Shown here: positions 10,178 to 55,846 of the stretch, one piece after another
Position numbering within the stretch: the first letter of the stretch is position 1
How the letters are laid out: every line of letters begins with the position of its first letter
Assembly (NCBI GenBank): GCA_003559475.1
Contig: PWLF01000170.1
Span: forward strand, 1-55,846
Direction of reading: 5' to 3'
Source: Bacteroidales bacterium
GTDB lineage: Bacteria > Bacteroidota > Bacteroidia > Bacteroidales > UBA7960
Length of the DNA: 55,846 nt
Made by a program: the position numbers and the translations under genes
The notes under the pieces: generated by a model
What the model saw: only the letters and a program-made list of their open reading frames with translations
The model's database searches: none
Told to the model about the DNA's origin: nothing

Positions 10178-12463
10178 ATGAAAAAAACAACTTTTATGCT
10201 TTTGCTTACATTAGCTTTTTGCTTTATGGAAGTAGAAGTTGTTAGTTGCTCAAGTAATGATGCAACTTCAAATAAAATTTTTTCTGATATTTTAAATTCT
10301 TCTGAAAACGTAATAGCAAATAATGCTTCTTCTTTAGGGAATTTTGGATATATGAGTGCTTACATTCTAACATTGGAAGCCAACCCACGTGATGGCGGAT
10401 CTTTAAGTGGTCAAGGGAGATATACTGAAGGTGATGAAGTTGAATTATCAGCTACTGCTAATGAAGGATATGAATTTGTTTATTGGATGGATGCATATGG
10501 AAATACTATTAGTATGGATTCAGATTTTGTTTATGAAATGCCTTTTGAAAATACCACTTTAACAGCAGTGTTTGACAAGAAAGAATATAATATGACAGTC
10601 AGTATTAAGGGTGGTGGTGTTGAAGCTAACTTTGGGGAAGGCACTCATAGTATTGAATTTACCGATGAGATAACAATATCTGCTAAACCAAATGAAGGTT
10701 GGTCATTTACGCACTGGGAAGGAGATATTGATAGCAGAAGAGCAAGAAATTCAGAAGTAACTCTCAATATGCCTGCTAATGATTTAAATATTACTGCTAA
10801 TTTTGAAAGACAAAAGTTTAACTTAGCAGTTGATATTAAAGGAGAAGGCTCCGAATCTAACTTTGGTAGAGGAAGGCATTCCATTAAATTTGATGAGAGT
10901 GTTACTCTTGAAGCTAAACCTAATAGAAGCTGGAGATTTACCGGTTGGACAGGAGATGTTGAAAGCGACGAAGATAAATTATTGTTTAATATGCCCGCTA
11001 AAGATGTTGCTGTTATTGCTAACTTTGAATTTATTCAAACTTACGTACTTTCATTATCTGCAGATCCAATTAGAGGAGGTATTTTAAGCGGCGGAGGCAG
11101 ATATGAAGAAGGTGAAAAAGTTGAAGTTAATGCCACAACAAATGAAGGTTATGCATTTTCAAATTGGACTGATGAAGAAGGTAATATATTAAGCGAAAAG
11201 CCGAAATTTGAATATACTATGGCAGACGAAGAAATTACCCTTATAGCGAATTTCGAAACGGCAAATAATCTAACTTTATCTGCTGAACCATCCGAAGGAG
11301 GTGATATTGAAGGTTCCGGTAGTTATGTCCAAAATGAAAAAATTGAAATTATCGCTGAAGCAAGCGAAGGATATAGATTTGTCAATTGGACAGGTGATAC
11401 AGAATACCTGGAAGATGCAAATGCAGTTAATACAATAGTAAATATGCCGGGAGAAGATATATCCTTAAATGCTAATTTTGAAAGAAAAGAGTATGAGTTG
11501 GTTATATCAGTTTATGGTCAAGGAAGTGAAGGTAATTTTGGTGAAGGAACGCAATCTGTTAAGTTTAATGAGAGTATTAGCCTGAAAGCTGTATCAGAAG
11601 GAGGATGGATGTTTCAAAAATGGGATGGCTTTAAATTAAGTGAAAATAAAGAACTTAATTTTAATATGCCGGCTGAGAGTATCGAAGTTTATCTTTACTT
11701 TTTACAAGAAATCATTTGTGGTGAACCTTTTTATTATCACGGATACTACTATGAAACTGTTAAAATTGGGAACCAGTGCTGGTTTAAAGAAAATCTAAGA
11801 ACGACTAAATATACCGATGGAAGTAAAATAAGAGGAGACCTGCCTGATGATGAATGGTCAAATACTAATAATAACCAGATAGGAGCTTATGCGGTCTATG
11901 ACCATAATCATGCTGATGCAGAAGGATTAAATTCACGACAAGAAGTTATTGAAGCTTATGGTAAACTATATAACTGGTATGCTGTTGACGATGAAAGAGG
12001 TTTATGCCCGTATAGATGGAGAGTGTCATCAGATGATGATTGGAAAATACTTGAAGGTACAGTAGATAGCCAACATGATATAAATGATGATATTTGGAAT
12101 GAAATTACATGGAGAGGTGAAGATGCAGGAAAAAAATTAAAAAATTGTCGTACCGAAAATCATCCTTTAGGGCTTGAAGCAGGCGACTGTAACGTTGATA
12201 ACAATGAGCACCCAAGATGGGATAAAAATGACGATGTGTTTGGAACTGACGATTTTGGCTTCTCTGCTTTGCCCGGTGGTATCAGAAGTACAGGAGGTGG
12301 TTATTTTACACTTGGAAGAAATGGAAGATGGTGGGTAAGTGATGAAGAATCTCAAACGCATGCTTGGAGTAGATTCTTAACAAGAGATAGAGATGCTATC
12401 TTTCGCAACAATTATAATAAAGTTAACGGATATAGTGTAAGATGTGTCATTGATGTTGAATAA
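10178..12463 (+). CDS. Secreted protein: six InlB-B-repeat (Listeria-Bacteroides repeat) modules plus a C-terminal FISUMP lectin-like domain
   Basis: Signal peptide. Repeated modules of about 75 aa read L.L.A.P..GG...G.G.Y.EG..V...A..NEGY.F..WTD......F.M....I.L.ANFE. The C-terminal block reads GNQCWFKENL...YGKLYNWYA...CP..WRV.SDDDW..LE...GFSALPGG.R...GYSVRCV. Confidence 0.8.
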   Translation: MKKTTFMLLLTLAFCFMEVEVVSCSSNDATSNKIFSDILNSSENVIANNASSLGNFGYMSAYILTLEANPRDGGSLSGQGRYTEGDEVELSATANEGYEFVYWMDAYGNTISMDSDFVYEMPFENTTLTAVFDKKEYNMTVSIKGGGVEANFGEGTHSIEFTDEITISAKPNEGWSFTHWEGDIDSRRARNSEVTLNMPANDLNITANFERQKFNLAVDIKGEGSESNFGRGRHSIKFDESVTLEAKPNRSWRFTGWTGDVESDEDKLLFNMPAKDVAVIANFEFIQTYVLSLSADPIRGGILSGGGRYEEGEKVEVNATTNEGYAFSNWTDEEGNILSEKPKFEYTMADEEITLIANFETANNLTLSAEPSEGGDIEGSGSYVQNEKIEIIAEASEGYRFVNWTGDTEYLEDANAVNTIVNMPGEDISLNANFERKEYELVISVYGQGSEGNFGEGTQSVKFNESISLKAVSEGGWMFQKWDGFKLSENKELNFNMPAESIEVYLYFLQEIICGEPFYYHGYYYETVKIGNQCWFKENLRTTKYTDGSKIRGDLPDDEWSNTNNNQIGAYAVYDHNHADAEGLNSRQEVIEAYGKLYNWYAVDDERGLCPYRWRVSSDDDWKILEGTVDSQHDINDDIWNEITWRGEDAGKKLKNCRTENHPLGLEAGDCNVDNNEHPRWDKNDDVFGTDDFGFSALPGGIRSTGGGYFTLGRNGRWWVSDEESQTHAWSRFLTRDRDAIFRNNYNKVNGYSVRCVIDVE
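10361..11706 (+). repeat. Intragenic tandem array of six B-repeat modules of about 75 aa (two alternating subtypes); boundaries approximate
   Basis: Read from the translation of 10178-12463. Subtype 1 reads ..L.L.A.P..GG..SG.G.Y. Subtype 2 reads KEY.....I.G.GSE.NFGEG..S.KF. Confidence 0.6.
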
Positions 12464-41413: not shown

Positions 41414-42721
41414 TTAATCATTTTTATTATATGGCAGGTTGATGTTTTTTTCAGACCATAACAAATACAGTGCTCCAACTACTAAACTTACCATGCATAC
41501 CACAAAAGCAGTAGTAAAACCCCATGTTTCATAAAAGAACATACCTATTAGCGGGGCCATTAGCGAACGTAATCCAACCATTGATAAATGTGTTGATTGA
41601 TAAAGCCCTGCCTCTTCTTTCTTGCAAAAATATGCCGAACCGATACTCCATAAAAGAGCCATTGTAGCTGCAAAAAGAGAGTGAAAAAGAATATAAAAAA
41701 TCAATGTGTAGTAAATTGTAATTCCAAAAAATTCAAAATTTGATGGAAACCATTGAGTTAAAGTTAGAGATAGAATAAATAATGTCATGCATGTAAAAGA
41801 TATCGCTGCAAACTTTCGAGGATCAATGTTGCCGATAATCTTTCCAAATAAGGGTATTAACATAATAGCGATTATGTTGTAAGAGTTTTTATAAAAAGCT
41901 ACGCTTGTATAGTTTAATCCCAACTGTTTGTCAAAAAATATCGTTATGATTGAAACAGATGCCATAAATCCAAACCCGTAAAACATGAATCCTACCTCAA
42001 AATCAAAAAAGGATCTATTTCCGGTAAAGGTACCGGACATCTTTTTCAGCGATTCTTTTACTAATTTCAGGTAAGATTTTTTTACTTCCGAAACAATGTT
42101 TTGCTCTTTGTGGTCTATCATGGACAGAAGAAACACAGATAGAATTCCTAAAACTCCTATTATAGGAAAAACATAAACAAAGGCAAAATTATCTTTATCG
42201 AGAAGCAGTCCATAGCCGAAAGTAACAACTAATGCTGTGATTTTTTTCGCCATTTCAGCCCAAGAATATAGCTTCCCAAAGTTCTCATTGCTGTATGATT
42301 GTTTTAAGAAAAGATTAATAGTGGGATAAATAATAGGATTTGCCAAAAAATAAATCAAAAAAACGCATATAAAAATGTAATGATAAATTGGTTGGTCAAC
42401 GATTGAGTCAAAAGAGCGAGGGAAGAAAAATAGTAAAATCAAAGGGATCCTTGTTATAATTGCAGTTGTTCGCAGCAGTTTTTTTCGGTTTTTAATTTTA
42501 TCCGTAAAAGCATTAAAAAGAGCCAAGAAAAGAAAGACAACCATGCTAAACTGAAACAAAATGCTTAGTTGGTAGCCCGAACCTTGCAAACTTTTGATAA
42601 AGACAAACTCATTTAGAACAATTACTCCGGCTAAAATACCTTCTATAATGGAATAAGAAAGATGAAGATAAAACGTCTTGCGTTCCTCATTACTAAGGTT
42701 TTTTAAGTACTTTTTCCTCAT
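41414..42721 (-). CDS. MFS-type transporter (about 12 TM)
   Basis: Hydrophobicity pattern of two six-helix halves with a central loop. No specific subfamily recognised. Confidence 0.65.
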   Translation of the reverse strand: MRKKYLKNLSNEERKTFYLHLSYSIIEGILAGVIVLNEFVFIKSLQGSGYQLSILFQFSMVVFLFLALFNAFTDKIKNRKKLLRTTAIITRIPLILLFFFPRSFDSIVDQPIYHYIFICVFLIYFLANPIIYPTINLFLKQSYSNENFGKLYSWAEMAKKITALVVTFGYGLLLDKDNFAFVYVFPIIGVLGILSVFLLSMIDHKEQNIVSEVKKSYLKLVKESLKKMSGTFTGNRSFFDFEVGFMFYGFGFMASVSIITIFFDKQLGLNYTSVAFYKNSYNIIAIMLIPLFGKIIGNIDPRKFAAISFTCMTLFILSLTLTQWFPSNFEFFGITIYYTLIFYILFHSLFAATMALLWSIGSAYFCKKEEAGLYQSTHLSMVGLRSLMAPLIGMFFYETWGFTTAFVVCMVSLVVGALYLLWSEKNINLPYNKND

Positions 42722-42740
42722 CTTTTTTTAGTATGACAAA

Positions 42741-43868
42741 TTAGTTAACTGCTTGTAAAGTTTCATTTTTATACTGGAGGGGTGTCTTGCCTGTCTCTTT
42801 CTTAAACCAAAAGTAGAAAGTAGCTTTGGATTTAAAACCGGATTGTTTTGAAATTGAATCAATTGTATGTTTTTGAAAAGAATTGCTTCTGATTAATTTT
42901 TTTGCTTCAGCAACGCGCATAGTATTTATTAAAGAATAAAAATTGCTGTTGGCTTCTTCCTTAATAGATATAGATAAGTAGGTTCTGTTGATATTAAGAT
43001 CTCTTGATATGCTGAATAATGACAATTCAGGATTTATATAAAGTTTATCAGTAATTATATGATCCTTTAGCTTATTATATATACTTTTAGTGTCAATATT
43101 AGTTTTTGTTTTTTTTGATGATTCAAGATCTTTTTCAACTGCTTCTTTTTTTATAATACTATTATCAATTTTTTTATGACAATTTGAATAAATAGCTTTT
43201 TGCTTAAATCCGAAAAAGCCCAAGATAAAATGCTGTACTATATAAATTGAATTAGATATATGTATATAATTTATATTTGAGACTAAAAAATTCATATCTC
43301 TTATAATAAAAACAAAAATGAAGTCTAGGTTAATTATAAATAGGTAGATAAATAAATATACCTTTAGCCATTTTAGATTGTTGTTGCTAAGGTAAAAAGA
43401 GAAGTTGTTTTTTATGTTACTTGTGTGTTTTCTTAATAGTAAGAATATTGCCAGAGAGTAGCTTAGAACTTGAGCAGCATACAATGATACAATAATTAGA
43501 TGTTGTAATGTATTGCTAAAATATTCAGATAAAATACTTCTTGCTAAAATTAGAAATAATAATGCTATAAAAGGAGGGGTGAAATGCAAAAAGTATTTCC
43601 TTCTAAAAGTAAAATTAATTTGCACCAAACATTTTGTGTAAATATATAAAATCGGCATTATTAAGAATATAAGCATATTCATAATATAAAAGCCATAAGG
43701 ATAAGTTATACTACTTGATATTGCCAGTAGATAATAGCAACAAGTGCATAACAAAACAGCACTTAATATTTTTTTTTGCTTTTCTTTTTCTGTTAAACTA
43801 ATAAAACCAAATATGAATGTTATAACTACAATAATGACATTAAATAAAAAAGCCGGATTATTTCCCAT
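42741..43868 (-). CDS. Membrane-anchored AraC-family transcriptional regulator (about 7 TM N-terminal domain plus C-terminal HTH)
   Basis: I count seven hydrophobic helices in residues 1-225. The C-terminus reads LSLFSISRDLNINRTYLS..IKEE...NFYSLIN.MRV.EAKKLI........I..IS..SGFKS..TFY.WFKK.TGKTP..Y (AraC HTH). It is a paralogue of 50446-51603. Confidence 0.8.
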   Translation of the reverse strand: MGNNPAFLFNVIIVVITFIFGFISLTEKEKQKKILSAVLLCTCCYYLLAISSSITYPYGFYIMNMLIFLIMPILYIYTKCLVQINFTFRRKYFLHFTPPFIALLFLILARSILSEYFSNTLQHLIIVSLYAAQVLSYSLAIFLLLRKHTSNIKNNFSFYLSNNNLKWLKVYLFIYLFIINLDFIFVFIIRDMNFLVSNINYIHISNSIYIVQHFILGFFGFKQKAIYSNCHKKIDNSIIKKEAVEKDLESSKKTKTNIDTKSIYNKLKDHIITDKLYINPELSLFSISRDLNINRTYLSISIKEEANSNFYSLINTMRVAEAKKLIRSNSFQKHTIDSISKQSGFKSKATFYFWFKKETGKTPLQYKNETLQAVN

Positions 43869-43983
43869 AAATTTTTACATTTAAATAATTACATATGTAT
43901 TAAAAACAATAAAAGTTTTACACAACCTTCTGTATATTAAACAATAACAGGTGATTTTTAGAAGTGTAATAATCTCAAAATTA

Positions 43984-44045
43984 GTATTAATTGCCCAATT
44001 TAAACATGTTTGTTGCAAAGTTATAAAGTTTTGAATTTATATTTG
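43984..44045 (+). promoter_or_regulatory. Conserved promoter, copy 1: 23-nt operator-like motif plus -7 box
   Basis: GTATTAATTGCCCAATTTAAACA (43984-44006), then TATATTTG (44038-44045) starting 54 nt after the motif start. The ATG is at 44088. Confidence 0.6.
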
Positions 44046-44087
44046 TTTTTTTATAAAATTAAAATAAAATTATTAAAAATTAAAAAA

Positions 44088-45179
44088 ATGAAATCAAGTA
44101 AAATTATTGCATTTATAATAACAGTTTTTATAATACAAACTGTAGCATTTTCAGAATTATCTATAAGTCCTGATGGTACTGAACCGCATCCGGCTGCTAT
44201 AATAGATTTAATTTCAAATGACAAAGGGGTTCTTTTCCCTCGGATGTCAACAGATGATCGAGAAGAAATAGATACTGAACCTGAAGGAGATTGGGACTCT
44301 GCGGAATCTTTGATTATTTTTAATGAAACTACCAATTGTTTTGAAACCTATCTGTTAGGTTCTTGGCATGAGATGTGGTGTTTAAGCCCTTATATTGAAA
44401 GCCCTTGTAAAGATTATGAAAATGAAGATAGTTCCACAGGCTTTTTATTGGTAGATTCGCGTGATGATGAAGAATACGAATTAATTGAACTTGGCGGCCA
44501 ATGCTGGATGGCAGAAAATTTGGCATATTTGCCTGAAGTTCATAATAATAGTGATTTCGAAACCCAAGGGAATAATCAAGATCCAGGATATGGTGTTTAT
44601 GGTTATAATGGAGATGATGTAAATGATGCAAAGAATCACACGCATTTTCTGAGTATTGGAGATGTGAATGTTTATGAAAATTATGGAGTATTATATAACT
44701 GGTGGGCAGCAATGGGCCAATCAAATGCAACTGGTTGCAATGGAACAGGGGCTCCACCCAATGACGCATGCGATACGCCTGTTCAAGGCGCATGTCCTGA
44801 TGGATGGCACTTACCAAGTGATTATGAGTGGACTACATTAGAAAGGTATATATGCAATGATGCAGATAATGAAGATTGCGATACCAACTTTCCTTATGAT
44901 GAATCTGATACCGGCTATCGAGGCAATGATGAAGGTGATAGGTTGAAATACTCTAATTGGTGTTGGAGTGATCCATGTGCAACTAGCGGTTTTGCAGCTC
45001 GTATGAGTAAATCCAGAAATACAACCGGCACTTTCCCGGATGTTTATACAGGAAGCTGGTGGAGTAGTTCAGGCGATGCTAGTGGATTTTACAGACGCCT
45101 TCGAGATGATTACACTTCAGTTTTTAGGAATGAAGCAGATAAATCTTTCGGCTATAGTGTTAGATGTGTAAGAGATTAA
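44088..45179 (+). CDS. Array member P1: signal peptide plus shared N-module plus FISUMP lectin-like domain (subclass A)
   Basis: MKSSKIIAFIITVFIIQTVAFS/ELSISPDGTEPHPAAIIDLISNDKGVLFPRMST..., GGQCWMAENLAYLPEV, YGVLYNWWAA, CPDGWHLPSDYEW, GYSVRCVRD. The track start at 44010 is a TTG inside the promoter. Confidence 0.8.
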   Translation: MKSSKIIAFIITVFIIQTVAFSELSISPDGTEPHPAAIIDLISNDKGVLFPRMSTDDREEIDTEPEGDWDSAESLIIFNETTNCFETYLLGSWHEMWCLSPYIESPCKDYENEDSSTGFLLVDSRDDEEYELIELGGQCWMAENLAYLPEVHNNSDFETQGNNQDPGYGVYGYNGDDVNDAKNHTHFLSIGDVNVYENYGVLYNWWAAMGQSNATGCNGTGAPPNDACDTPVQGACPDGWHLPSDYEWTTLERYICNDADNEDCDTNFPYDESDTGYRGNDEGDRLKYSNWCWSDPCATSGFAARMSKSRNTTGTFPDVYTGSWWSSSGDASGFYRRLRDDYTSVFRNEADKSFGYSVRCVRD

Positions 45180-45230
45180 TGCGGTACTGATAAAAAATGT
45201 TGCTTATAAGTCAACCATTATTTACAAGTT

Positions 45231-45293
45231 GTATTAATTGTCCAATTTGAACAGAATTATTTGTAAATATTTAAAGTTTTAAACCTATTTTTG
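45231..45293 (+). promoter_or_regulatory. Conserved promoter, copy 2
   Basis: GTATTAATTGTCCAATTTGAACA (45231-45253), then TATTTTTG (45286-45293) starting 55 nt after the motif start. The ATG is at 45323. Confidence 0.6.
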
Positions 45294-45322
45294 CTTTTAT
45301 ACTAAAAAAACACTAATAAATT

Positions 45323-46291
45323 ATGAAATTAAATAAAACTTTTATTTTATTATTAACAGCTTTTATGTTTCAAGCTGTAGCTTTCTCTCAAGTATCCATA
45401 AGTGATGATGGTAACCGTGATGCTCACCCTTCCGCTGTGTTAGAGTTAATTTCAGCTGATAAGGGATTACTTTTGCCACGATTAACAACGGAGGAAAGAA
45501 ATAGTATTAACGATCCTGCGGAATCTTTGTTAATATTTAATACAGAAACTAATTGCATTAATGTTTGGCTAGATGAATGGTACAACTTTTGGTGCTATGA
45601 GCTACCGGAATGGAGTGAGTGTGGAGACAATATTGCCTTTATGTATAATGGTGAACAAGTAATATACGGCACATTTGAAAGCCCTGAAACCGGCAGATGT
45701 TGGTTAGACAGAAATCTTGGAGCTAAACGTGTTGCTCAAAGTGTTGACGATTATTTAGCTTATGGCGATTTATTTCAATGGGGAAGAGATGATGATGGGC
45801 ATCAAGTTATAAATTGGATTTCTGATGATAGTTCTGATGATGAGGAAAGAGCCAGGGAAACAGAGGATATTGCTACAACTGACCAACCGGGACACGATAA
45901 TTTTATAAAATCAGATAATTCTACTAATAGAGATTGGCGTAGTGACTATAATAATAACAGATGGAATGCTGATCCTATAGAAAACAACCCTTGTCCGGAT
46001 GGCTGGAGAATACCATCTGATGATGAGTGGGAAGCCGAGTCAGGCGGATGGTCTAATATTTATGATGGATTTGATTCGGGGTTAAAACTAACAGTTGCCG
46101 GAAGACGCCATAATGAAGGGGGTTACCTTCTTGATAGTCCTGTTAGCGGCTTTTATTGGACAAGCTCTTTAAGTGATGATCCCTCATATCCGGAATTCTC
46201 CAGATACTTTAGAGTTAACACATTTAGCTTCCCCGGTAATATTAACACAGGACGTGCAACAGGTTGTTCTGTCAGATGCATTAAAGACTGA
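45323..46291 (+). CDS. Array member P2: shared N-module plus lectin-like domain (subclass B)
   Basis: AFSQVSISDDGNRDAHPSAVLELISADKGLLLPRLTTEERNSINDPAESLLIFNTETNC, CWLDRNLGA, GDLFQWGRDDDGHQ, NPCPDGWRIPSDDEW, CSVRCIKD. Confidence 0.8.
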   Translation: MKLNKTFILLLTAFMFQAVAFSQVSISDDGNRDAHPSAVLELISADKGLLLPRLTTEERNSINDPAESLLIFNTETNCINVWLDEWYNFWCYELPEWSECGDNIAFMYNGEQVIYGTFESPETGRCWLDRNLGAKRVAQSVDDYLAYGDLFQWGRDDDGHQVINWISDDSSDDEERARETEDIATTDQPGHDNFIKSDNSTNRDWRSDYNNNRWNADPIENNPCPDGWRIPSDDEWEAESGGWSNIYDGFDSGLKLTVAGRRHNEGGYLLDSPVSGFYWTSSLSDDPSYPEFSRYFRVNTFSFPGNINTGRATGCSVRCIKD

Positions 46292-46339
46292 TATTAGATT
46301 AAGTATTATAATCCTAAATAACAATTAAAACAAAAAACT

Positions 46340-47311
46340 ATGAAACTAAAAAAAACTATTACACTTCTCATTACAGTTTTTATATTTCAAACTGTCGCAC
46401 TTTCTCAAGTGTCTATAAGCAAAGACGACCGTACTGCTCACCCCGCTGCTTTGTTGGATTTGGTAGCAAACGAAAAAGGATTTCTTATGCCTAGATTAAC
46501 TATGGAAGAAAGAAATGAAATAACTAATTTGGATGAAATTCACGAAGGCGTTGATGCCGAATTTTTAATGATTATTAATACTGATAGTAAATGTATAGAA
46601 ATGTATGTTGAGAACTCTTGGAACCCCATTTGGTGTCACGATCACTGTGATGGCATTAAGGAAGTGACGTTTATATACAACGAAGAGGAGGTGACATACG
46701 GAACTGTCTCAAATGCAGGACAGTGCTGGCTTGATAGAGTTTTAGGAGCTTGCCCTGATACAAATCCGGAGGACTATACAGATGCCAATGATTTTAGAGG
46801 AAAAGGAGACCTTTTTCAGTGGGGAAGGCTAGATGATGGTCATCAGCTTATTGATAGAGAAGAAAATGAAGTGATTTCAAACACAACTACTGCGAAAAGC
46901 GGATCTGATATTCCGGGACATAACTTATTTATAAATGCAGGTTCCGGAGAAGATTGGTTAGTTACTAGAAATGATAATCTTTGGGATGATGCAAATGGTG
47001 CTAGTAATCCTTGCCCCAATGGATGGAGACCTCCAACAAAAGATGAAATGGAAATTGAAATGAATAGCTGGCATGGCGTGGGGCGTGATGTTGCATTTGC
47101 TTCTCCTCTTAGATTTACAACAGGAGGACGTAGAGAATCAACAACTGCTGTCGAATTAAACAGAACTTCCACTCAGGGAAATTATTGGACAAGCACAAAT
47201 AGTACAGATGAACCCGGAGAGTCCGTATTCTTAATGATAACATCTACCGCTAATTATTTTAGTGAGTTTAATAGAGCTCGTGGTGCTAGTGTTAGATGTA
47301 TTAAAGACTAA
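46340..47311 (+). CDS. Array member P3: shared N-module plus lectin-like domain (subclass B)
   Basis: ALSQVSISKDDRTAHPAALLDLVANEKGFLMPRLTMEERNEI, CWLDRVLGA, GDLFQWGRLDDGHQ, NPCPNGWRPPTKDE, ASVRCIKD. Confidence 0.8.
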   Translation: MKLKKTITLLITVFIFQTVALSQVSISKDDRTAHPAALLDLVANEKGFLMPRLTMEERNEITNLDEIHEGVDAEFLMIINTDSKCIEMYVENSWNPIWCHDHCDGIKEVTFIYNEEEVTYGTVSNAGQCWLDRVLGACPDTNPEDYTDANDFRGKGDLFQWGRLDDGHQLIDREENEVISNTTTAKSGSDIPGHNLFINAGSGEDWLVTRNDNLWDDANGASNPCPNGWRPPTKDEMEIEMNSWHGVGRDVAFASPLRFTTGGRRESTTAVELNRTSTQGNYWTSTNSTDEPGESVFLMITSTANYFSEFNRARGASVRCIKD

Positions 47312-47355
47312 TAAGGCAAATTAATATTTATTTTTTTTAACTAATTATTATATAA

Positions 47356-48282
47356 ATGTATAAAACAACAAGAATTACTTCACTGTGTTTAATGTTGATG
47401 TTTTCGATAACAAGCATTTCTCAGGTTTCAATAAGTGAAAAAGATGGACAACAAGCTCATCCGTCTGCTATTTTAGATCTGATTTCTGAAGAAAAAGGTG
47501 TGCTTATTCCTAGATTAACACAAGAACAAATAAATGCTATTGTTGACCCTGCTGATCATTTGATGGTTATTAACCTAGATAGTGACTGTGTTGAAATGAT
47601 GATTAATGGTTTTTGGTTTCAGCTTTGGTGCTATGAAAGCCCATGTAGTGGTTATGAAGGTAGCACTTATGAGTATGAAAAGGTAGTCGATGGTTATACT
47701 TATAGATTGGTTGATATCGGAAATCAATGCTGGTTTGCAGAAAATATACGATATAACTATGATAATTGTTATAATGAAACTTGGGTTAATTATCAAGATA
47801 GAGGTTGGTGTGGTTATTATTATGATGGTTCTGATGAATTAGAAGAGTATGGCAAATTATACCAGTGGTCAGCTGCTTTAAATGTTTGTCCTGCAGGATG
47901 GACTCTGCCTTCTAATAACGACTGGACGATGCTGGAAAGGGCTATTTGTGTGAGCGGAACATGTATTGAAGAGTTTCCTCTAGATAACACAACAATATCT
48001 TGGAGAGGGACAGATGAAGGAGATAGGATAAAGTGTAATGAATATGATGATGGAGCTTTCTGTAATGAAGAAGAATTTTGCGGTACAAGTTCTTTTACTG
48101 CTTTGCCCGGTGGGTTTCGTCGAGACTATGGTACGTATAGCCAAAATAACGCGTTTTGGTGGACATCCACTCAAGATGGTGGTGACGCTTGGAGACGTGT
48201 AATAAGTCCAAATCGTTCGGATATAGATCGTGCTACAAGAACTAAAGCAAATGCATACTCGGTTAGATGCGTTAGAGAGTAG
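47356..48282 (+). CDS. Array member P4: shared N-module plus FISUMP domain (subclass A)
   Basis: SISQVSISEKDGQQAHPSAILDLISEEKGVLIPRLTQEQ, GNQCWFAENIRY, YGKLYQWSAA, CPAGWTLPSNNDW, SFTALPGGFR, YSVRCVRE. Confidence 0.8.
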   Translation: MYKTTRITSLCLMLMFSITSISQVSISEKDGQQAHPSAILDLISEEKGVLIPRLTQEQINAIVDPADHLMVINLDSDCVEMMINGFWFQLWCYESPCSGYEGSTYEYEKVVDGYTYRLVDIGNQCWFAENIRYNYDNCYNETWVNYQDRGWCGYYYDGSDELEEYGKLYQWSAALNVCPAGWTLPSNNDWTMLERAICVSGTCIEEFPLDNTTISWRGTDEGDRIKCNEYDDGAFCNEEEFCGTSSFTALPGGFRRDYGTYSQNNAFWWTSTQDGGDAWRRVISPNRSDIDRATRTKANAYSVRCVRE

Positions 48283-48390
48283 TCCTACCCAAAATTATGT
48301 GTTTTGTGTCAATTGTTAGTTGATATAAAGGCGTTTTTATATTGTTTAATTTGTTGTAAAACAAAATAGTTATTTTAAATATTCAAATAA

Positions 48391-49311
48391 ATGAAAAAGT
48401 TAGTATTAGCTCTATTAATATGTGTTTTCTCAATATCTGCTTTCTCACAGCAGAGAGTTTTAATAAGCGATGACAATAATATTTTAGAAGATAATCAATC
48501 AGCTATTCTTGAACTTTTTTCTAAGAATAAAGGTTTTTTATTACCCCGTGTTACTACAGATGAAAGGAATCAAATATCTAATCCGTCAAATTCTTTGTTG
48601 ATTTTTAACAAAGAAACTCAATGTATAGAGTCCTATGTTGAAGATTGGCATAGTATATGGTGTCTTGAAGAATCACTGTTTCCCATCAATTATGTCCATT
48701 GCGAATCTCCAACAGAAGTAGTTGAAATAACCTCAGAAACAGGAAGAGTATGGATGGATAGAAATCTTGGAGCTACTAGAGCTTGTTTATCTTCAACAGA
48801 TGTAGAGTGCTACGGTTATTGGTTCCAGTGGGGGCGTTTTGCCGAAGGGCATCAATGCAGAAGTTCAGATGATTATATTATAGGTCTTGCAGATACTTAT
48901 TTACCTGATGATGGAAATGAATGGTATGGGAAGTTTATAACAAATGATAATGATCCCAAAAATTGGATTTCTACTCAAGAGGATGATTTATGGCAAGGAG
49001 AAGAGAATAGTACAAATAATCCCTGTCCTAAAGGATTTAGATTGCCTACTAATGCTGAATGGCAAGCTGAAATAGACCAAGGTAGCTGGACAAATGCTGC
49101 AGATGCTTTTAACTCAAATCTAAAATTGCCCTTGGCAGGGGGACGTTCTAATAGCGTTGCGCTGCCTTTCAGTGTTGGGTTGTCCGGATTCTATTGGGCA
49201 AGCTCGGTAGATAATAATCGCTCACAAAATATTAGCTTTAGTACTAATATTATAGACTTGTATAGTGATGTTAGAGCTTATGGCTTTTCTGTACGCTGTA
49301 TAAAAGATTAA
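48391..49311 (+). CDS. Array member P5: shared N-module (most divergent copy) plus lectin-like domain (subclass B)
   Basis: AFSQQRVLISDDNNILEDNQSAILELFSKNKGFLLPRVTTDERNQISNPSNSLLIFNKETQC, VWMDRNLGA, YWFQWGRFAEGHQ, NPCPKGFRLPTNAEW, FSVRCIKD. Confidence 0.8.
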   Translation: MKKLVLALLICVFSISAFSQQRVLISDDNNILEDNQSAILELFSKNKGFLLPRVTTDERNQISNPSNSLLIFNKETQCIESYVEDWHSIWCLEESLFPINYVHCESPTEVVEITSETGRVWMDRNLGATRACLSSTDVECYGYWFQWGRFAEGHQCRSSDDYIIGLADTYLPDDGNEWYGKFITNDNDPKNWISTQEDDLWQGEENSTNNPCPKGFRLPTNAEWQAEIDQGSWTNAADAFNSNLKLPLAGGRSNSVALPFSVGLSGFYWASSVDNNRSQNISFSTNIIDLYSDVRAYGFSVRCIKD

Positions 49312-49366
49312 GCGTGTAGCTGAAAATTTGTTTATATAATTTTTTTTAATCAAATACTTTTAAAAA

Positions 49367-50380
49367 ATGAGGATATTAAAAAAAACTACGGTATTATTAT
49401 TACTTGTATATTCATTATCATCTTATTCGCAAGTTTCAATAAGTGATAAAGAAAATCAACAGCCTCATCCATCTGCAGTATTAGATTTAATATCAAATGA
49501 TAAGGGCTCTCTAATGACTCGGCTAACTGAATCTCAAAGAGATGCAGTAGCTAATCCTTCAGAGGCATTAATGATTTTTAATAAAACGAAAAAATGTATT
49601 GAGATTTGGGTAGATGGTTCTTGGCATGAGATTTATTGCTTAGAGAGTGAAGATCCTATTGAAGAGTATTGTGATGGATTAGAGGAGGTTACATTTATGT
49701 ATAACGGGCAGGAAGTTACATATAGGACAGTAGGAAGCACTAAAACCGGGTATTGTTGGTTAGACAGAAATTTAGGAGCTGTTTCTTATGATGAAGGTGA
49801 TCCGGATACACATGGTCCATCATCGAAAACTGATATTAATTTTTACGGAGATATTTTTCAGTGGGGTAGAGCAGATGATGGTCATCAGGTTATAAATTGG
49901 ATAGATTCAGAGAATTCCGACGGAGATGAGCAAAACAGAGAAACTTCTATTTTAGCAACCAACGATCAGCCCGGGCATGCTAATTTTATTAAATCAACAC
50001 ATGATGATGAGTTTGATTGGCGGACTGATAATAACACTAATAGGTGGAATGCTGACCCAATTGTTAACAATCCTTGTCCGGATGGTTGGCGTGTTCCAAC
50101 TGAGCAAGAGTGGGCAAATGAAGCAGGGTTTGATGATAATGGTTGGAGTAATTCCGATGATGCTTTCGCTTCAGACCTTAAGTTGACTGTTGCCGGCTTT
50201 CGTGACTTTGAATTTGGTGCGCTAAGACGTACGGGTGACCGCGGTCTATACTGGTCAAGTACAGTTAGCGACGGAGCCACTTGCTCTATGCTTATATTAT
50301 TTGATGATGATCTTGCTATGATGGATATCAGTGGTGGAAGAGCCGGCGGAGACTCAGTTAGGTGCATCAAGGATAATTAG
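49367..50380 (+). CDS. Array member P6: shared N-module plus lectin-like domain (subclass B; closest paralogue of P2)
   Basis: SYSQVSISDKENQQPHPSAVLDLISNDKGSLMTRLTESQRDAV, CWLDRNLGA, GDIFQWGRADDGHQVINWI, NPCPDGWRVPTEQEW, DSVRCIKDN. Confidence 0.8.
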   Translation: MRILKKTTVLLLLVYSLSSYSQVSISDKENQQPHPSAVLDLISNDKGSLMTRLTESQRDAVANPSEALMIFNKTKKCIEIWVDGSWHEIYCLESEDPIEEYCDGLEEVTFMYNGQEVTYRTVGSTKTGYCWLDRNLGAVSYDEGDPDTHGPSSKTDINFYGDIFQWGRADDGHQVINWIDSENSDGDEQNRETSILATNDQPGHANFIKSTHDDEFDWRTDNNTNRWNADPIVNNPCPDGWRVPTEQEWANEAGFDDNGWSNSDDAFASDLKLTVAGFRDFEFGALRRTGDRGLYWSSTVSDGATCSMLILFDDDLAMMDISGGRAGGDSVRCIKDN

Positions 50381-50445
50381 ACACTTTTTTTAACTCCGTA
50401 ATTCATTGATACTGCACAGAATAACCAATGCAAATTGTCCTAATA

Positions 50446-51603
50446 TTATATGTTAGAAGACAGATTGTTATTTTTAACCGCATTTTCATATTTAATGGGT
50501 GTATGTCCTGTCTTTTTCTTAAACCAAGAGTAAAAAGTAGCCCTAGACTTAAAACCAACATCTTTTGAAATATACTCAATTGAGTGTTTTGTCAAATAAT
50601 CATTTTTGATCATTTCTTTTGCCTCTTCTATTCTCATATTATTAATCAAAGAGTAAAAATTGTCCCCTGTCTCTTCTTTTATTGATAAAGATATATATGT
50701 TCTGTTTATGCCGATTTTTTTTGCTATGCTGAATAATGATAAATTTGGGTTTTTAAATAACTTCTCGTTTTTTATGTACTTCAATATCTTATTGTAAATA
50801 CTCTTTGTATCTATATTTTGCTTTTGTTCCGGTTTTATATTAGATGTTTTAGTACTAGTAACTTCTTTATTTAATAGCTCATGTTGGTCAGCATGGCTTT
50901 TATATATAGCTTTTTGCTTGACACCGAAATAACTGATGATGAAAATTTTAATAGCAGTTAAAAAAGAAAAAACTATATCGGCCTGAATGCCAAATATAAA
51001 TTTCTTATAAAACTGTTGGTCAATAATTGTTAATGAAAGTTCAAAAAATATAATAAAAAAATAAAAAATTAATAAAAGTTTAAGCCATAATAAATTGTTT
51101 TTGTGATGGTAGGTTGAAAAATACTCTTTAATATTTGATTTGTGAAATCTAAATAATTTTATAATTAAAAAACAATAAAGCAAAACTTGCAGTGTATAAA
51201 TAGATACAGCTATGTAATAGTAATAGTGATTAATAACAACAAGGTTAATGACATAAATGCGATCTATGAAATAAATTGTAATGAAAAAAAATAAGGCTAA
51301 AAAACTTGGAGAAAAGTGAATTAAATATTTTTTTTGCCAAATAAAGGGAAATAATATTAGAGATTTTGTATATAAAAACCAAAATGGTATTATTGCGAAA
51401 AACCAGAAGGAATGAAATATAACCCCGAGAATAGAGAAATTGTTTAATAGATATATAAAAATAGAGTAGTATAAAGCTATATTTAGTAATTGAAGCCCTA
51501 ATATTTTTTTTGATATATGCTTCTCAGTTATTACAATTGAAGCAAATATTAGTGGAATAATAACTAACAAAAAGCGTAGTATATCTATAATGTTAACCTC
51601 CAT
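50446..51603 (-). CDS. Second membrane-anchored AraC-family regulator (paralogue of 42741-43868)
   Basis: Same architecture. The C-terminal 110 aa align almost residue for residue with the first copy (NIDTKSIYNK....I....L...P.LSLFSI......INRTY.S.SIKEE...NFYSLIN.MR..EAK..I). Confidence 0.8.
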   Translation of the reverse strand: MEVNIIDILRFLLVIIPLIFASIVITEKHISKKILGLQLLNIALYYSIFIYLLNNFSILGVIFHSFWFFAIIPFWFLYTKSLILFPFIWQKKYLIHFSPSFLALFFFITIYFIDRIYVINLVVINHYYYYIAVSIYTLQVLLYCFLIIKLFRFHKSNIKEYFSTYHHKNNLLWLKLLLIFYFFIIFFELSLTIIDQQFYKKFIFGIQADIVFSFLTAIKIFIISYFGVKQKAIYKSHADQHELLNKEVTSTKTSNIKPEQKQNIDTKSIYNKILKYIKNEKLFKNPNLSLFSIAKKIGINRTYISLSIKEETGDNFYSLINNMRIEEAKEMIKNDYLTKHSIEYISKDVGFKSRATFYSWFKKKTGHTPIKYENAVKNNNLSSNI

Positions 51604-51840
51604 GATAGTATTTATATATATAATTATTTGTATTGTTTAATGGAATATAGTGATTTGATTTTTATAAAATATCCCTGAAATAAATAAAATCATATTAAAA
51701 AATATAAAATACAAAGTTAATAAATTTAACTCTATTATTCTTTTAATATCATCTCAATCTTTTCAAAATATCAATTTTCCGTTTTCCCTTATTTCCCTGT
51801 GAATAAGCGACAATACAAAATTTTATTTAGAAAATAATTT

Positions 51841-51902
51841 GTATGGATTGTCCAAATTGAACAAGTTGGTTTTGTCAGAAATAATATAAATATGTACGTT
51901 TG
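51841..51902 (+). promoter_or_regulatory. Conserved promoter, copy 3 (about 355 nt upstream of the next gene)
   Basis: GTATGGATTGTCCAAATTGAACA (51841-51863), then TACGTTTG (51895-51902) starting 54 nt after the motif start. An inverted partial copy ATTGTCCAAAT lies on the minus strand at 51997-52007. Confidence 0.5.
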
Positions 51903-52110
51903 TTTTTAAATTCAACAAAAAAATTGGATTAAACATCAAAGTTCATAATCTATATATTAATTTTTTTAATAGTATTAACATTGAAAGAGATATTTCATTT
52001 GGACAATATGGTTTGTATAAAATTATATTTTTAAAACCATGACAATTAGATACATCAAAATCAAAAATATAACTACTTGCTTCAAAGAATTGAAGCTATA
52101 GAAAATAAAT

Positions 52111-52233
52111 AAAAAGAAAAACGCCTTTATGGGTTATTTGGTATTACTAGTTAGTATGTTTTGTTTGCATAATTTTTAATCGTTCTTTATAATTAATGAC
52201 TACCATCTAATACTATAAAGGCTTTTTCTTTTT
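52111..52233. repeat. Near-perfect 19-20 nt inverted repeat enclosing 84 nt, inside the long leader of 52258-53217
   Basis: AAAAAGAAAAACGCCTTTAT (52111-52130) versus ATAAAGGCTTTTTCTTTTT (52215-52233). The reverse complement differs by one missing G. A related ATAAAGGCGTTTTT occurs at about 48325-48338. Confidence 0.6.
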
Positions 52234-52257
52234 ATTTGTATTATTAAATTGTTTTAA

Positions 52258-53217
52258 ATGGTTATCGCAATGAATATTTTTAAAAAATTATTAGTTTCAG
52301 CTTTATTTTTAACTTTTGTACACATATCTTTTTCGCAAACATCCATTAGTAATAAAGAAACTCATCATCCTCACCCTTCAGCAGTGCTTGATTTAATATC
52401 TGACGATAAAGGGTTTCTTCTTACTCGCATGTCAACTGATAATAGAAATGATATTGATGATCCTGCTGAGTCATTGTTGATTTTTAACTCGGAAACTAAA
52501 TGTATTGAAATTTATCTTGGTGGAGAATGGCATGATGTATGGTGTTCTGAGGTAGAACCTTTTGCTGAATGTGGTGATAACTTATCTTTTACATACAGAG
52601 GATCTACAGTGGTATATGGAACAATAGAAAGTCCTACTACCGGCGAATGCTGGCTTGACAGAAATCTTGGCGCCTCAAAAGTTGCACAATCATACGATGA
52701 TGAAGATGCTTTTGGAGATTTATTCCAGTGGGGAAGATTAGATGACGGGCATCAAGATAGGGAAAGCAACACAACTACAACGACATCCGCTGACAATAGC
52801 CCCGGTCATAACGAATTTATAATAAATACCAATAATCCATACTCGTGGCAAGTACCGCAAACATGCGACTTATGGCAAAGCGCTTCTTGCGAAAATAACC
52901 CATGCCCACCCGGTTGGAAAGTCCCTGATAGGGATGAATGGACCGCTGAAACGGGTGCATGGGAATCTGATGACTATAGAGAAGATGCCTTTAATACTTT
53001 AAAATTAACAGCCGCAGGTAATAGAAGTCATTTTAGTGGAGATCTTGATAACGCCGGAAGTAGAGGATACTACTGGACAACTGAATGTACTCCAAACTAT
53101 TACTCCGGAGATCCTAATTACCACGGAGCTTTTAGACAAATTATTAGTGAAGAAAGTAAATGGAGGTTAAGGCATAGACTAGGAGAAGGTCAAGCAATAA
53201 GGTGTATTAAAAAATAA
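52258..53217 (+). CDS. Array member P7: shared N-module plus lectin-like domain (subclass B)
   Basis: SFSQTSISNKETHHPHPSAVLDLISDDKGFLLTRMSTDNRNDIDDPAESLLIFNSETKC, CWLDRNLGA, GDLFQWGRLDDGHQ, NPCPPGWKVPDRDEW, AIRCIKK. An alternative ATG lies at 52270. Confidence 0.8.
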   Translation: MVIAMNIFKKLLVSALFLTFVHISFSQTSISNKETHHPHPSAVLDLISDDKGFLLTRMSTDNRNDIDDPAESLLIFNSETKCIEIYLGGEWHDVWCSEVEPFAECGDNLSFTYRGSTVVYGTIESPTTGECWLDRNLGASKVAQSYDDEDAFGDLFQWGRLDDGHQDRESNTTTTTSADNSPGHNEFIINTNNPYSWQVPQTCDLWQSASCENNPCPPGWKVPDRDEWTAETGAWESDDYREDAFNTLKLTAAGNRSHFSGDLDNAGSRGYYWTTECTPNYYSGDPNYHGAFRQIISEESKWRLRHRLGEGQAIRCIKK

Positions 53218-53270
53218 ATTGTTTAACAAAAAAGTAATATTTGATATTTAAATATATAAAAATTTAAATT

Positions 53271-54260
53271 ATGAACAGAAAAAAAATCAAAACAATCTTA
53301 GCGTTAATCGTATTTTTAGTTAGTTTTAATAAAAGCTACTCTCAAGTTTCTATTTATGATGGAGCTGGCAGTTCTCCAGAAGCTCACCCTGCTGCAGTAC
53401 TGGATTTAAAATCTGAAGATAAGGGTTTGTTAATTCCTAGGATGGATACTGATTCAAGAGATAATATCAATAATCCTGCGGAATCATTAATAATATTTAA
53501 TGAAGAGAAAAACTGTGTTGAAGTTCACTTGAATGGTGAATGGAATGAATTATGGTGCAAACCGGAACCGGAAATAGATGCATGTGAGGGTGTTTCTCAA
53601 CCAACATTGGATGGCTATAATTATGAGATTATCGGCTTAGGCGACCAATGCTGGTTTGCTGAAAATTTGAGGTATTTGCCTGATGTTCACCAGGTTGATG
53701 ATGCATCAGACTCAGAACCACGTTATTATGTACATGGTTATAACGGAACAGTCGTTGCTGATGCAATACTTCATGAAGAGGAGTTACACGGAAGTGATAT
53801 TAATGTTTATGAAACTTTTGGTGTGCTTTATAACTGGACTGCTGCAATAAATTCATGTCCTGATGGCTGGAGCTTACCCGATGATGATGATTGGAAAGAA
53901 TTGGAATTGTATCTTGGCATGGAGCAATCTGAGGTTGATGCTTATGATCTTGATAGAGGAACAAATGAAGGTGCAAAGATTGCCGGTAATGAAGCTTTAT
54001 GGCAGTCAGGGGAATTAACTGATGATCCTGAATTTGGATTGACAGGATTTGACGCTTTGCCGGCAGGACACAGAAGAACGCATGAAGACTTTACGCACTT
54101 GGGTGATATAACTAATTTTTGGGTAGCAACTGAAGAATGTGATCACTGGGATGATGAAACATACTGCTATAGAGGTCTATCCTCTTCTATTTTTATAGGA
54201 ATAGACAGAATGGGGCATTATGGAGAAGCAGGGTATTCAGTTAGATGCATTAAAGATTAA
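53271..54260 (+). CDS. Array member P8: shared N-module plus FISUMP domain (subclass A)
   Basis: SYSQVSIYDGAGSSPEAHPAAVLDLKSEDKGLLIPRMDTDSRDNINNPAESLIIFNEEKNC, GDQCWFAENLRYLPDV, FGVLYNWTAA, CPDGWSLPDDDDW, GFDALPAGHR, YSVRCIKD. Confidence 0.8.
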   Translation: MNRKKIKTILALIVFLVSFNKSYSQVSIYDGAGSSPEAHPAAVLDLKSEDKGLLIPRMDTDSRDNINNPAESLIIFNEEKNCVEVHLNGEWNELWCKPEPEIDACEGVSQPTLDGYNYEIIGLGDQCWFAENLRYLPDVHQVDDASDSEPRYYVHGYNGTVVADAILHEEELHGSDINVYETFGVLYNWTAAINSCPDGWSLPDDDDWKELELYLGMEQSEVDAYDLDRGTNEGAKIAGNEALWQSGELTDDPEFGLTGFDALPAGHRRTHEDFTHLGDITNFWVATEECDHWDDETYCYRGLSSSIFIGIDRMGHYGEAGYSVRCIKD

Positions 54261-54353
54261 AAAGATTATTTAATATAAATGGTTTTTTTAAATCTTTATT
54301 GGCTAATATCATGACTAAAAAAATCTTAACTAAAAACTTTAAAAAATAACATT

Positions 54354-55846
54354 ATGAAAAAAACTATCTTTTTATCAATTTTTTTAATTGGATATCTGAT
54401 ATCCTCTTATTCACAAGTATCAATCAGTCCCGATGGTCGCGACCCTCATCCGGCTGCTATTATGGATTTGATATCAGATGACAAAGGGTTTCTCATACCT
54501 AGAGTAGAGCTTACAGGCACAAATGATGTCTCTACTGTTGATGTTAATGCAGCACACGTCCATGATGCTGTTGGGTTACTGGTTTATAACATCAATACGG
54601 AAAATGATGTAACTCCGGGTTTCTACTACTGGAATGATACCGAATGGGTTAGAATTGCCGTAGGAGATGATATTGTTACCTATACTGCCGGAGATGGCTT
54701 GTTATTAGTAGGCACAGAGTTTTCTGCTGACTTTGGTACAGGTCCTGGAAAAGTTGCAGAAGGAAATGATTCTAGAATTAACAACGGACAAACTGCCTAT
54801 GACTGGGGTAACCATGCTGATGCAGGTTATTTAGACTCTTTTGATGAGTTGGATCCAACTTGGAGTGGGGATGCAAATATTACAGGAGATATAGGAAGAA
54901 CAGGGAATGTTGGAATCGGCACAACAACACCTGAACATGATTTGAATGTACACGCAGAAGATCACGCTACAATAAGCATAACCTCAGACGATTCTCAATA
55001 TAGAACGACATTAAATAATTACAGACAATGGGAGGCAGGAGAACCAATGATGACTTTAACCGGTAGGGATGACGATGTAGTAATTGGTCAATATATGTAT
55101 GGTACTGGTCATAAGGGAACGGCATTAATGTCCGGTAATGTAGGTATCGGGACAATAAGTCCCCAAGCAAAGCTCGAAGTATCAGAAGATGGAGCTATAT
55201 TGGCAACCGGAGATGTTGGTGATGGATGGCAGGGTGGAAACTTAGGCGCAGGGTCAAGATTAAAGTGGATCCCAAGAAAAGCTGCTTTTAGGGCAGGTGA
55301 AGCAACCGATGATGAATGGAATGCTACGAATATTGGCGATTATTCTTTTGCAGTAGGTCGTAATACAACGGCTAGCAGCCGTGCATCTTTTGCAATAGGA
55401 GAGTCTTCTTCTGCTACAGGAAGATGGTCTTTTGCCGGAGGCGAGGCTACAGCGTCAGGCGATTTTTCTTTCGCTATGGGTAGTGGCGAAGCGAGTGGAA
55501 ATTCATCAATTTCAATGGGACTGTGGGCTAATTCTGAAGGATCACAGTCAGTTTCCTTGGGTAGATATACTAGAGCAAATGGCGATAGATCAGTCGCTAT
55601 AGGAGAAAATTTAAATACAAATTCACATGATAATGCTTATGTTTTTGGCAAAGGAAACGCGACGTCTAATCGCTTTCTATCACCAAAAGCTAACTCTTTT
55701 TCTGTTGGGTTTAATAAAGGAAATGCAGATGATCCTGACTTTATGGTAGAAGAAGGAAAGGTGGGAATCAATACCTCCAACCCTCTAACCGCACTAGAAG
55801 TATCCGGCGACGGAGCAATCTTAGCAACAGGAACCGGCGGTAGTGG
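54354..55846 (+). CDS. Array member P9: same signal peptide and N-module start, fused to a tail-fibre / YadA-head-like repeat region; the 3' end runs off the window
   Basis: Absent from the ORF track because no stop is reached. I translated it codon by codon from the ATG at 54354 and it stays open to the window end. The sequence reads MKKTIFLSIFLIGYLISSYSQVSISPDGRDPHPAAIMDLISDDKGFLIPRVELTG...GLLVYN...FYYWNDTEWV. Later come GNVGIGTTTPEHDLNV and GNVGIGTISPQAKLEV, then degenerate S(F/I)A.G......G repeats (YSFAVGRNTTAS, SFAIGESSSATG, SFAGGEATASG, SFAMGSGEASG, SISMG, SVSLG, SVAIGEN). Confidence 0.8.
   Translation, partial: MKKTIFLSIFLIGYLISSYSQVSISPDGRDPHPAAIMDLISDDKGFLIPRVELTGTNDVSTVDVNAAHVHDAVGLLVYNINTENDVTPGFYYWNDTEWVRIAVGDDIVTYTAGDGLLLVGTEFSADFGTGPGKVAEGNDSRINNGQTAYDWGNHADAGYLDSFDELDPTWSGDANITGDIGRTGNVGIGTTTPEHDLNVHAEDHATISITSDDSQYRTTLNNYRQWEAGEPMMTLTGRDDDVVIGQYMYGTGHKGTALMSGNVGIGTISPQAKLEVSEDGAILATGDVGDGWQGGNLGAGSRLKWIPRKAAFRAGEATDDEWNATNIGDYSFAVGRNTTASSRASFAIGESSSATGRWSFAGGEATASGDFSFAMGSGEASGNSSISMGLWANSEGSQSVSLGRYTRANGDRSVAIGENLNTNSHDNAYVFGKGNATSNRFLSPKANSFSVGFNKGNADDPDFMVEEGKVGINTSNPLTALEVSGDGAILATGTGGS

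Follow-up and report, generated by a model that had tools for sequence, protein, structure and literature searches.

FISUMP domains (PF09603, TIGR02145) have been inferred to be extracytoplasmic or cell-surface binding modules (PMC4704652), a member has been detected in the envelope proteome of F. succinogenes (PMC4619616), and the domain is reported, like C-type-lectin-fold binding domains, as a target of diversity-generating retroelements (DGRs; PMC11661182). Other Bacteroidota, among them Aequorivita sp. KMM 9714 (P0080) and GCA_002049705.1, encode proteins in which such a domain follows a PTL_trimer domain (PF26696), often from same-strand genes in tandem. Here we analyze an array of nine genes of this kind, P1 to P9, at the end of a 55,846-nt contig of a Bacteroidales bacterium (PWLF01000170.1 of assembly GCA_003559475.1); "the window" means this whole stretch, and all coordinates refer to it. 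The array lies on the plus strand, and the regulator genes that accompany it lie on the minus strand. The proteins of the other Bacteroidota have the same architecture and 40-50% identity to P2; their arrays differ from this locus in lacking interleaved polytopic AraC regulators and Peptidase_S74 fiber genes. We propose that the array probably encodes exported, disulfide-bonded, trimeric lectin-like and fiber proteins, built on a tail-fiber-type trimerization domain and placed under local transcriptional control.

All nine array open reading frames (ORFs) and both regulator ORFs were recovered where an earlier first-pass annotation of this DNA had placed them. Its central observation, nine same-strand secreted proteins with a common N-terminal module, was borne out by the ORFs and by profile search alike: a module profile matched P1-P9 at E 1e-28 to 3e-33, and no other window protein matched. 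The module covers about 75 aa in a single alignment register, with ten invariant columns in P1-P9 and a mean column identity of 54%, a likeness far beyond chance. Its mean pairwise identity is 49%, versus 30% for the C-terminal domain. Two module cysteines (alignment C82 and C96) are invariant across P1-P8, and the HP motif is absent from P5, both as first described. Across the module sequences, both cysteines are present in 34 and both absent in 13, with a single cysteine in none; this joint presence or absence indicates a disulfide bond, and hence folding outside the cytoplasm.

The export signals are equally uniform. All nine proteins begin with a Sec signal peptide ending in (F/Y/L/I)S, with Gln at +1. 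According to the Q-rule of Bacteroidetes, signal peptidase cleaves before Gln (PMC5837995). The most likely cleavage site, judged from the sequence, falls between ..FS and QVSIS, directly before Gln, so that the module would begin at mature residue 1, the position it takes in 14 of the 14 proteins of the extended locus described below. The first-pass annotation had listed neither lipobox nor type IX secretion system (T9SS) C-terminal domain in the array, and we agree: P1-P9 have no lipobox and no Cys at +1 of their signal peptides, and a Pfam scan found no Por_Secre_tail or other T9SS C-terminal domain in them, FISUMP reaching the last residue. The T9SS C-terminal domain at 14191-17100 was detected by Pfam, a positive control that also shows this earlier call to be real.

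The module turned out to be a catalogued family. Precomputed annotations (E<=1e-5) assign Pfam PF26696, PTL_trimer, to P1-P8 in an identical Logan contig (L033), to the window's own P2 (P0023), P3 (P0102) and P7 (P0028), and to all module homologues returned by protein search, while P9 is recognized, at E 1e-29, by a profile derived from proteins that carry PF26696. All PF26696 calls are precomputed, since the family is newer than the Pfam release scanned locally; for the same reason the older release gave nothing relevant for the module (E<=10) or its homologues. The module followed by FISUMP, in proteins of about 300-330 aa, is common as well, P2 having 4,306 matches at E<=1e-3, many of them with both PF26696 and PF09603; among them is the Aequorivita protein, to which NCBI gives the name FISUMP domain-containing protein. 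That the module belongs to no described family is not supported. The first-pass annotation had reckoned with the module mapping to an already characterized family of known function, and this came true for the cataloguing and not for an experimentally known function: in the searchable literature we found no paper mentioning PF26696 or PTL_trimer and no experimental study of proteins headed by it.

To gauge how widely the module is spread, an exhaustive profile search was run over 1.84 billion cluster representatives (clusters at 50% identity), and it found the module in at least 61,582 of them at E<=1e-3 and in 35,543 at E<=1e-10. The top matches are 300-6,840 aa long and contain the module 3-14 times, in internal as well as N-terminal positions. 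Among the best 149 cluster representatives, the median is three copies, spaced along shafts; 97 of the 149 start with the module, and the C-terminal domain is an S74-like chaperone in 26 and FISUMP in 23. Proteins of other genomes join an N-terminal module to FG-GAP propellers, PKD plus Gly-rich domains, K1-lyase_C, Peptidase_S74, or YadA_head plus S74, the last fusion recurring in two of the module loci compared below (L012, L016). The fusion partners thus include obligate-trimer domains, and the earlier picture of a shared module with swappable C-terminal domains extends well past this organism. Three multi-copy homologues (P0170, P0186, P0147) show a weak match between the latter half of the module and the C-terminal portion of DUF2793 (positions 60-87 of 87; E 1e-11 to 6e-6), suggesting that PTL_trimer and this Pfam family are related.

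The domain scan found TIGR02145/PF09603 on the C-termini, as had been predicted, most clearly for P1, P4 and P8, which lie well above the curated cut-offs (PF09603 91-111 bits versus 33.9; TIGR02145 90-95 versus 41.65). P1 (44088-45179) scores 91 bits for PF09603 and 94 for TIGR02145, with a module match at aa 5-109 (E 6e-29) and precomputed PF26696 on the identical L033 gene; P4 (47356-48282) scores 104 bits for PF09603 and E 1e-28 for the module; and P8 (53271-54260) scores 111 bits for PF09603, 95 for TIGR02145 and E 1e-31 for the module. P5 (48391-49311; module E 1e-29) is borderline, passing the Pfam cut-off at 34.2 bits and not that of TIGR02145. P2 (45323-46291), P3 (46340-47311), P6 (49367-50380) and P7 (52258-53217) stay under both cut-offs at 21-33 bits; they align over their full length with other FISUMP members, and a 41% identical relative of these four is named FISUMP domain-containing protein by NCBI. 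P2 also carries a precomputed PF09603 match, and P6 was placed by Pfam, NCBIfam and module scans together with its precomputed PF26696 in L033. The alignment of P1-P8 keeps the motifs CP.GW..P and S(V/I)RC(I/V)(K/R) throughout, P2, P3, P6 and P7 included. Two subclasses emerge, A (P1, P4, P8) and B (P2, P3, P5, P6, P7), with 33-54% identity within and about 20% between them.

The ninth protein is of another build. P9 (54354-55846, cut by the window end) joins the signal peptide and module to VGIGT..P..L motifs and YadA-head-like repeats (YadA_head E 4e-11), and matches a PHROG tail fiber; P1, P2, P4, P7 and P8 have no PHROG match. An exact-match scan found a JGI contig (SL_3KL_010_SEDDRAFT_10003734, L037) that shares 755 bp with the window end, 2 mismatches aside, and extends the sequence by 13 kb. 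The nine genes first described are all there in the window, and the array continues beyond it: the joined locus comprises at least 14 genes headed by the module, together with three regulators, in the order regulator 1, P1-P6, regulator 2, P7-P9, P10, P11, regulator 3, P12-P14. At full length P9 has 867 aa and consists of the module, YadA_head (2e-43) and Peptidase_S74 (aa 762-816, E 2e-15). P10 (699 aa) is a module-headed fiber with a C-terminal Peptidase_S74, P12 (820 aa) a module-headed fiber whose tail is similar to Peptidase_S74, and P14 (583 aa) a module-headed fiber ending in S74 (E 9e-19), whereas P11 (329 aa) and P13 (330 aa) are module plus FISUMP proteins. Beta-roll shafts are found in all four fibers.

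Trimeric autotransporter adhesins such as YadA share with P9 the YadA_head repeats; P9 differs in ending in S74 and a coiled coil with no membrane-anchor beta-barrel, and its NCBIfam YadA score is 26 bits against a cut-off of 750. Closer in kind are phage tail fibers and tailspikes with an endosialidase-type Peptidase_S74, which resemble the S74 ends of P9, P10 and P14, the beta-roll shafts, and the module fold. Unlike these phage proteins, those of the array carry Sec signal peptides and are encoded on the chromosome among housekeeping genes, with no phage genes nearby.

At the structural level, the module alone was predicted to consist of six strands and one short helix (monomer model; predicted local distance difference test, pLDDT, 92.8), and the AF2 monomer model of full-length P2 reached a pLDDT of 91.3. 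A Foldseek search of the module against BFVD predicted viral structures returned 11 matches at E<=1e-3, the best at 3e-5, with TMq 0.65-0.79 and 24-36% identity; the only one of these to bear a name is a collagen-triple-helix-repeat protein. At E 5e-3 to 2e-2 followed an intramolecular-chaperone-domain protein and named cyanophage and Agrobacterium-phage tail-fiber proteins. The list of non-significant matches in the PDB is made up mostly of trimeric tailspikes and fibers (CBA120 TSP3/TSP4, HylP, Mtd, P22) and of collagen XV/XVIII trimerization domains. The predicted fold of the module is thus tail-fiber-like.

Each of the three regulators sits divergently upstream of one sub-array. Regulator 1 (42741-43868, minus strand) has 6-7 hydrophobic segments within aa 1 to about 230 and a C-terminal AraC helix-turn-helix (HTH; HTH_18 E 9e-13, aa 288-368), regulator 2 (50446-51603, minus strand) is its paralogue with the same architecture (HTH_18 E 4e-15), and regulator 3 on L037 (370 aa, minus strand) again combines 6-7 transmembrane segments with AraC. 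Regulators 1 and 2 are 46% identical and score 48.8 and 56.3 bits for PF12833 (HTH_18), against a cut-off of 33.6; no Pfam family matched their membrane part, the first 230 or so residues. The earlier report of two paralogous AraC regulators divergent from sub-arrays is thus sound, and the third one before a third sub-array strengthens the link. Their description as dedicated sensors of such arrays fared less well. The family is small, with 21 detectable homologues, and the nearest outside relatives, 32-33% identical (L034 4361-6745 and L035 6766-9182), are divergent to the gene of a 336-aa T9SS cargo protein with glycosyltransferases on the other side; more distant homologues adjoin unrelated genes. 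These neighborhoods hint at a general role of the family in the control of adjoining genes whose products are exported. Membrane-tethered regulators of the ToxR/CadC type and AraC/XylS activators offer a parallel, in that a cytoplasmic DNA-binding domain is joined to a membrane part and the likely targets are transcribed divergently from the regulator gene; the present regulators differ from ToxR/CadC in their N-terminal polytopic part, of 6-7 segments and no Pfam family, and in their AraC-type HTH. Regulator 1 and P1 are divergent genes, and in the DNA that separates them (43869-44087) a TAnnTTTG motif 50 nt 5' of the P1 ATG may be a promoter, going by its sequence; a sigma-70 promoter scan, which is not applicable to Bacteroidota, stayed at background level.

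Taken together, we read the array as the product of paralogous expansion, encoding Sec-exported proteins whose most likely state is the homotrimer. The module would nucleate or stabilize the trimer, or act as a fiber node, with no docking to a partner. In P1-P8 it would be locked by one internal disulfide and present three FISUMP heads, and as FISUMP is a putative C-type-lectin-like domain, such a trimer would form a multivalent binder, probably of glycans; the published binding role, the envelope detection and the DGR targeting of FISUMP domains all point to ligand binding, with glycans the probable ligands. In P9, P10, P12 and P14 the module would instead head a trimeric YadA-head-like beta-roll fiber, whose folding would be completed by an autocleaving C-terminal Peptidase_S74 chaperone, at least in P9, P10 and P14. 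With two FISUMP subclasses and so many paralogues, the array would then offer a repertoire of binding specificities, and the polytopic AraC proteins would probably be membrane-tethered one-component regulators that switch on the adjacent divergent sub-array, the sole line of evidence for this role being the gene order. A trimerizing unit that presents three lectin-fold heads, as proposed here, recalls Mtd of Bordetella phage BPP-1 and animal collectins, as an analogy only: the Mtd entry in the PDB list of the module has an E of about 1.5 over 33 columns and is not significant. Mtd is also a DGR target, whereas the diversity here comes from paralogues. A DGR was considered and rejected, 42700-55846 containing no near-identical repeat pair (the best repeats are paralogous segments 60-86% identical), and no reverse transcriptase was found among the Pfam matches, in a scan that covered part of the window ORFs.

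Several results weigh against this reading. Foldseek of the module against the PDB gave nothing significant (best E 0.25), nor did full-length P2, and no PDB entry was matched by sequence with the module profile, the full-length profile or P8. The case for trimerization comes from the Pfam name, the fold neighbors and the fusion partners. Two pattern scans of IMG/VR and a tblastn of P9 against INPHARED found no close relatives of the module, so its link to phages is remote. Our structural support for a lectin fold of FISUMP is weak: Foldseek of P2 gave snaclecs only, at E~2 and TM 0.34-0.39, and hhalign of the FGE-sulfatase protein of the window against the FISUMP profile reached a probability of 21% and was uninformative. 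Control by AraC regulators is suggested by the gene order, an arrangement that other module arrays do not share: about 30 further module loci contained no polytopic AraC regulator. Finally, as they lack both a T9SS C-terminal domain and a lipobox, the proteins may remain in the periplasm, which would weaken a role as adhesins or in glycan capture.

This last point leads to the view that the proteins stay in the periplasm, for instance as trimers that bind peptidoglycan, periplasmic glycans or imported oligosaccharides, and are neither surface nor secreted adhesins. The export signal is of the Sec/signal peptidase I type only, with neither lipobox nor Por_Secre_tail, a disulfide is compatible with the periplasm, and the T9SS cargo in the same window does carry its C-terminal sorting domain, so that its absence from P1-P9 looks meaningful. 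However, YadA-head/S74 fibers of 580-870 aa, with relatives of up to 6,840 aa, are hard to picture there, and published work on FISUMP infers that it binds at the cell surface or outside the cytoplasm (PMC4704652, PMC4619616); we judge a periplasmic residence unlikely. If the proteins instead derived from a prophage, tailocin or contractile injection system, as its tail fibers or receptor-binding proteins, then the tail-fiber-like fold of the module, the S74 chaperone of P9 and its PHROG tail-fiber matches would follow naturally. Virion and tailocin parts assemble in the cytoplasm, though, and every protein here has a cleavable Sec signal peptide, with a disulfide pair in P1-P8; no gene for a capsid, sheath, baseplate, terminase or integrase was found in the 55.8-kb window and its 13-kb extension, and searches of phage genome collections gave no match. 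In view of the signal peptides, the disulfide and the housekeeping flanks we reject this origin and give it hardly any credence.

The first-pass annotation had favored a docking adaptor, in which the N-terminal module attaches alternative lectin or fiber tips to one common surface structure, as tail fibers attach to a baseplate. Phage tail fibers typically use their N-terminus as the attachment end, and for this reason the idea keeps some weight: all 14 proteins have the module at mature residue 1, its sequence is better conserved than that of the cargo domain, and its fold neighbors are tail-fiber proteins. A docking-only role leaves the internal module copies, 3-14 per giant fiber, unexplained, however, and all-against-all clustering of the neighbors of 33 module loci yielded no candidate partner gene, the only recurring non-module genes being those of response regulators and sensors, in 3-5 loci. 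No phage, extracellular contractile injection system (eCIS) or pilus structural genes lie near the array, whose flanks are housekeeping, the Pfam curators' name speaks of a trimer domain, and the fusion partners are obligate-trimer domains. Internal multi-copy modules, the lack of a recurring partner and the tail-fiber-like fold favor trimerization or a fiber node, and docking appears quite improbable to us. A slim chance attaches to two further ideas: that the module is an unrecognized signal for surface export or anchoring of Sec substrates with no T9SS domain, or that it allows mixed heterotrimers, with combinatorial lectin and fiber heads tuned by the three AraC sensors, conceivable because about 14 paralogues, with modules 36-61% identical, share the trimerization domain and would be co-expressed from adjacent genes. 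Homotrimers of exported lectin-like and fiber proteins remain the interpretation we prefer.

Tandem arrays of three to five module-headed genes occur in Bacteroidales, Cytophagales and other metagenome-assembled genomes (L007, L009, L010, L012, L016, L018, L019, L024, L025, L028), and the one in GCA_002049705.1 (L031) consists of five module plus FISUMP genes. Relative to these, the present locus shows signs of gene turnover. In the 654-bp gap between regulator 2 and P7, positions 52044-52112 (plus strand) hold the last 19 or so codons of a fiber gene, HQNQKYNYLLQRIEAIENK, followed by its stop, with 79% identity to the P9 C-terminus by tblastn and 81-84% over about 140 nt to the 3' ends of P9, P10 and P12 by blastn. 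By sequence this stretch looks like a deletion relic, and a fiber-gene relic before P7 implies turnover within the array. Just downstream, at 52123-52233 (plus strand), lies a hairpin of about 100 nt with a T-run, of which L037 has three more copies, each 3' of a fiber gene (after P9, P10 and P12, at about 56964, 59275 and 64625 of the joined sequence). It comprises 27 predicted pairs, 5 of them with compensatory changes, around a conserved interior, TTTGTTTGCATAATT...CGTTCTTTATAAT, and the T-run is present in three of the four copies. Three of the four end 25-45 nt before the next ATG (P7, P11, P13). The element had no Rfam match, was found in this organism's locus only, and could be a terminator or a cis-regulatory element.

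Some smaller observations concern the gene models and surroundings. P1 opens at a TTG (44010) in the program-made ORF list, but its signal peptide is a normal one if translation begins at the ATG at 44088; for P7, the second Met (52270, MNIFKK...) may be the start instead of 52258. On L037, a terminal minus-strand ORF of at least 409 aa has no Pfam match and resembles an outer-membrane beta-barrel. Another contig of the same metagenome (L038, 2635-3841) is a second assembly of the regulator 3/P12 region, in which the regulator is split into two ORFs (a 216-aa membrane part and a 182-aa HTH part), through either a frameshift variant or an assembly error. Elsewhere in the window, 10178-12463 (plus strand) encodes a further FISUMP protein of 761 aa, with five Flg_new_2 repeats before FISUMP and no T9SS C-terminal domain, and near it the product of 14191-17100 (plus strand) is an M12 metalloprotease with Flg_new_2 repeats and Por_Secre_tail. 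The array is flanked by housekeeping genes, namely Lpx genes, Sua5, a CCA-adding enzyme and an MFS transporter. An LpxC-FabZ fusion, the T9SS C-terminal domain, the signal peptides that follow the Q-rule and the nearest loci, which belong to Bacteroidales metagenome-assembled genomes, all accord with an origin in Bacteroidota, and the name of the overlapping contig (SL_3KL_010_SED) points to soda-lake sediment. In 2-kb bins, GC content is 35-37% over the array genes (44001-50000, 52001-54000), 30-33% in the flanks, and about 27.5% in the bins with regulator genes and intergenic DNA (42001-44000, 50001-52000). This contrast probably reflects amino-acid composition, Gly/Asp/Trp-rich proteins versus membrane proteins, and not foreign origin.

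Every component of the locus is thus catalogued (PF26696, PF09603, PF13884 and AraC), tandem arrays of module plus FISUMP genes are widespread, and no new kind of system is revealed. What is particular here is the mixture of lectin-like and S74-fiber members, the three interleaved polytopic AraC regulators and the signs of gene turnover. PTL_trimer-headed proteins fill at least 61,000 clusters, many of them giant fibers, with no solved structure matched by sequence, and they raise the question of how Bacteroidota export and use tail-fiber-like proteins that carry a Sec signal and neither a T9SS nor a lipoprotein signal. Being compact, this locus is a reasonable model in which to address trimerization, ligand specificity, localization and regulation in the family.

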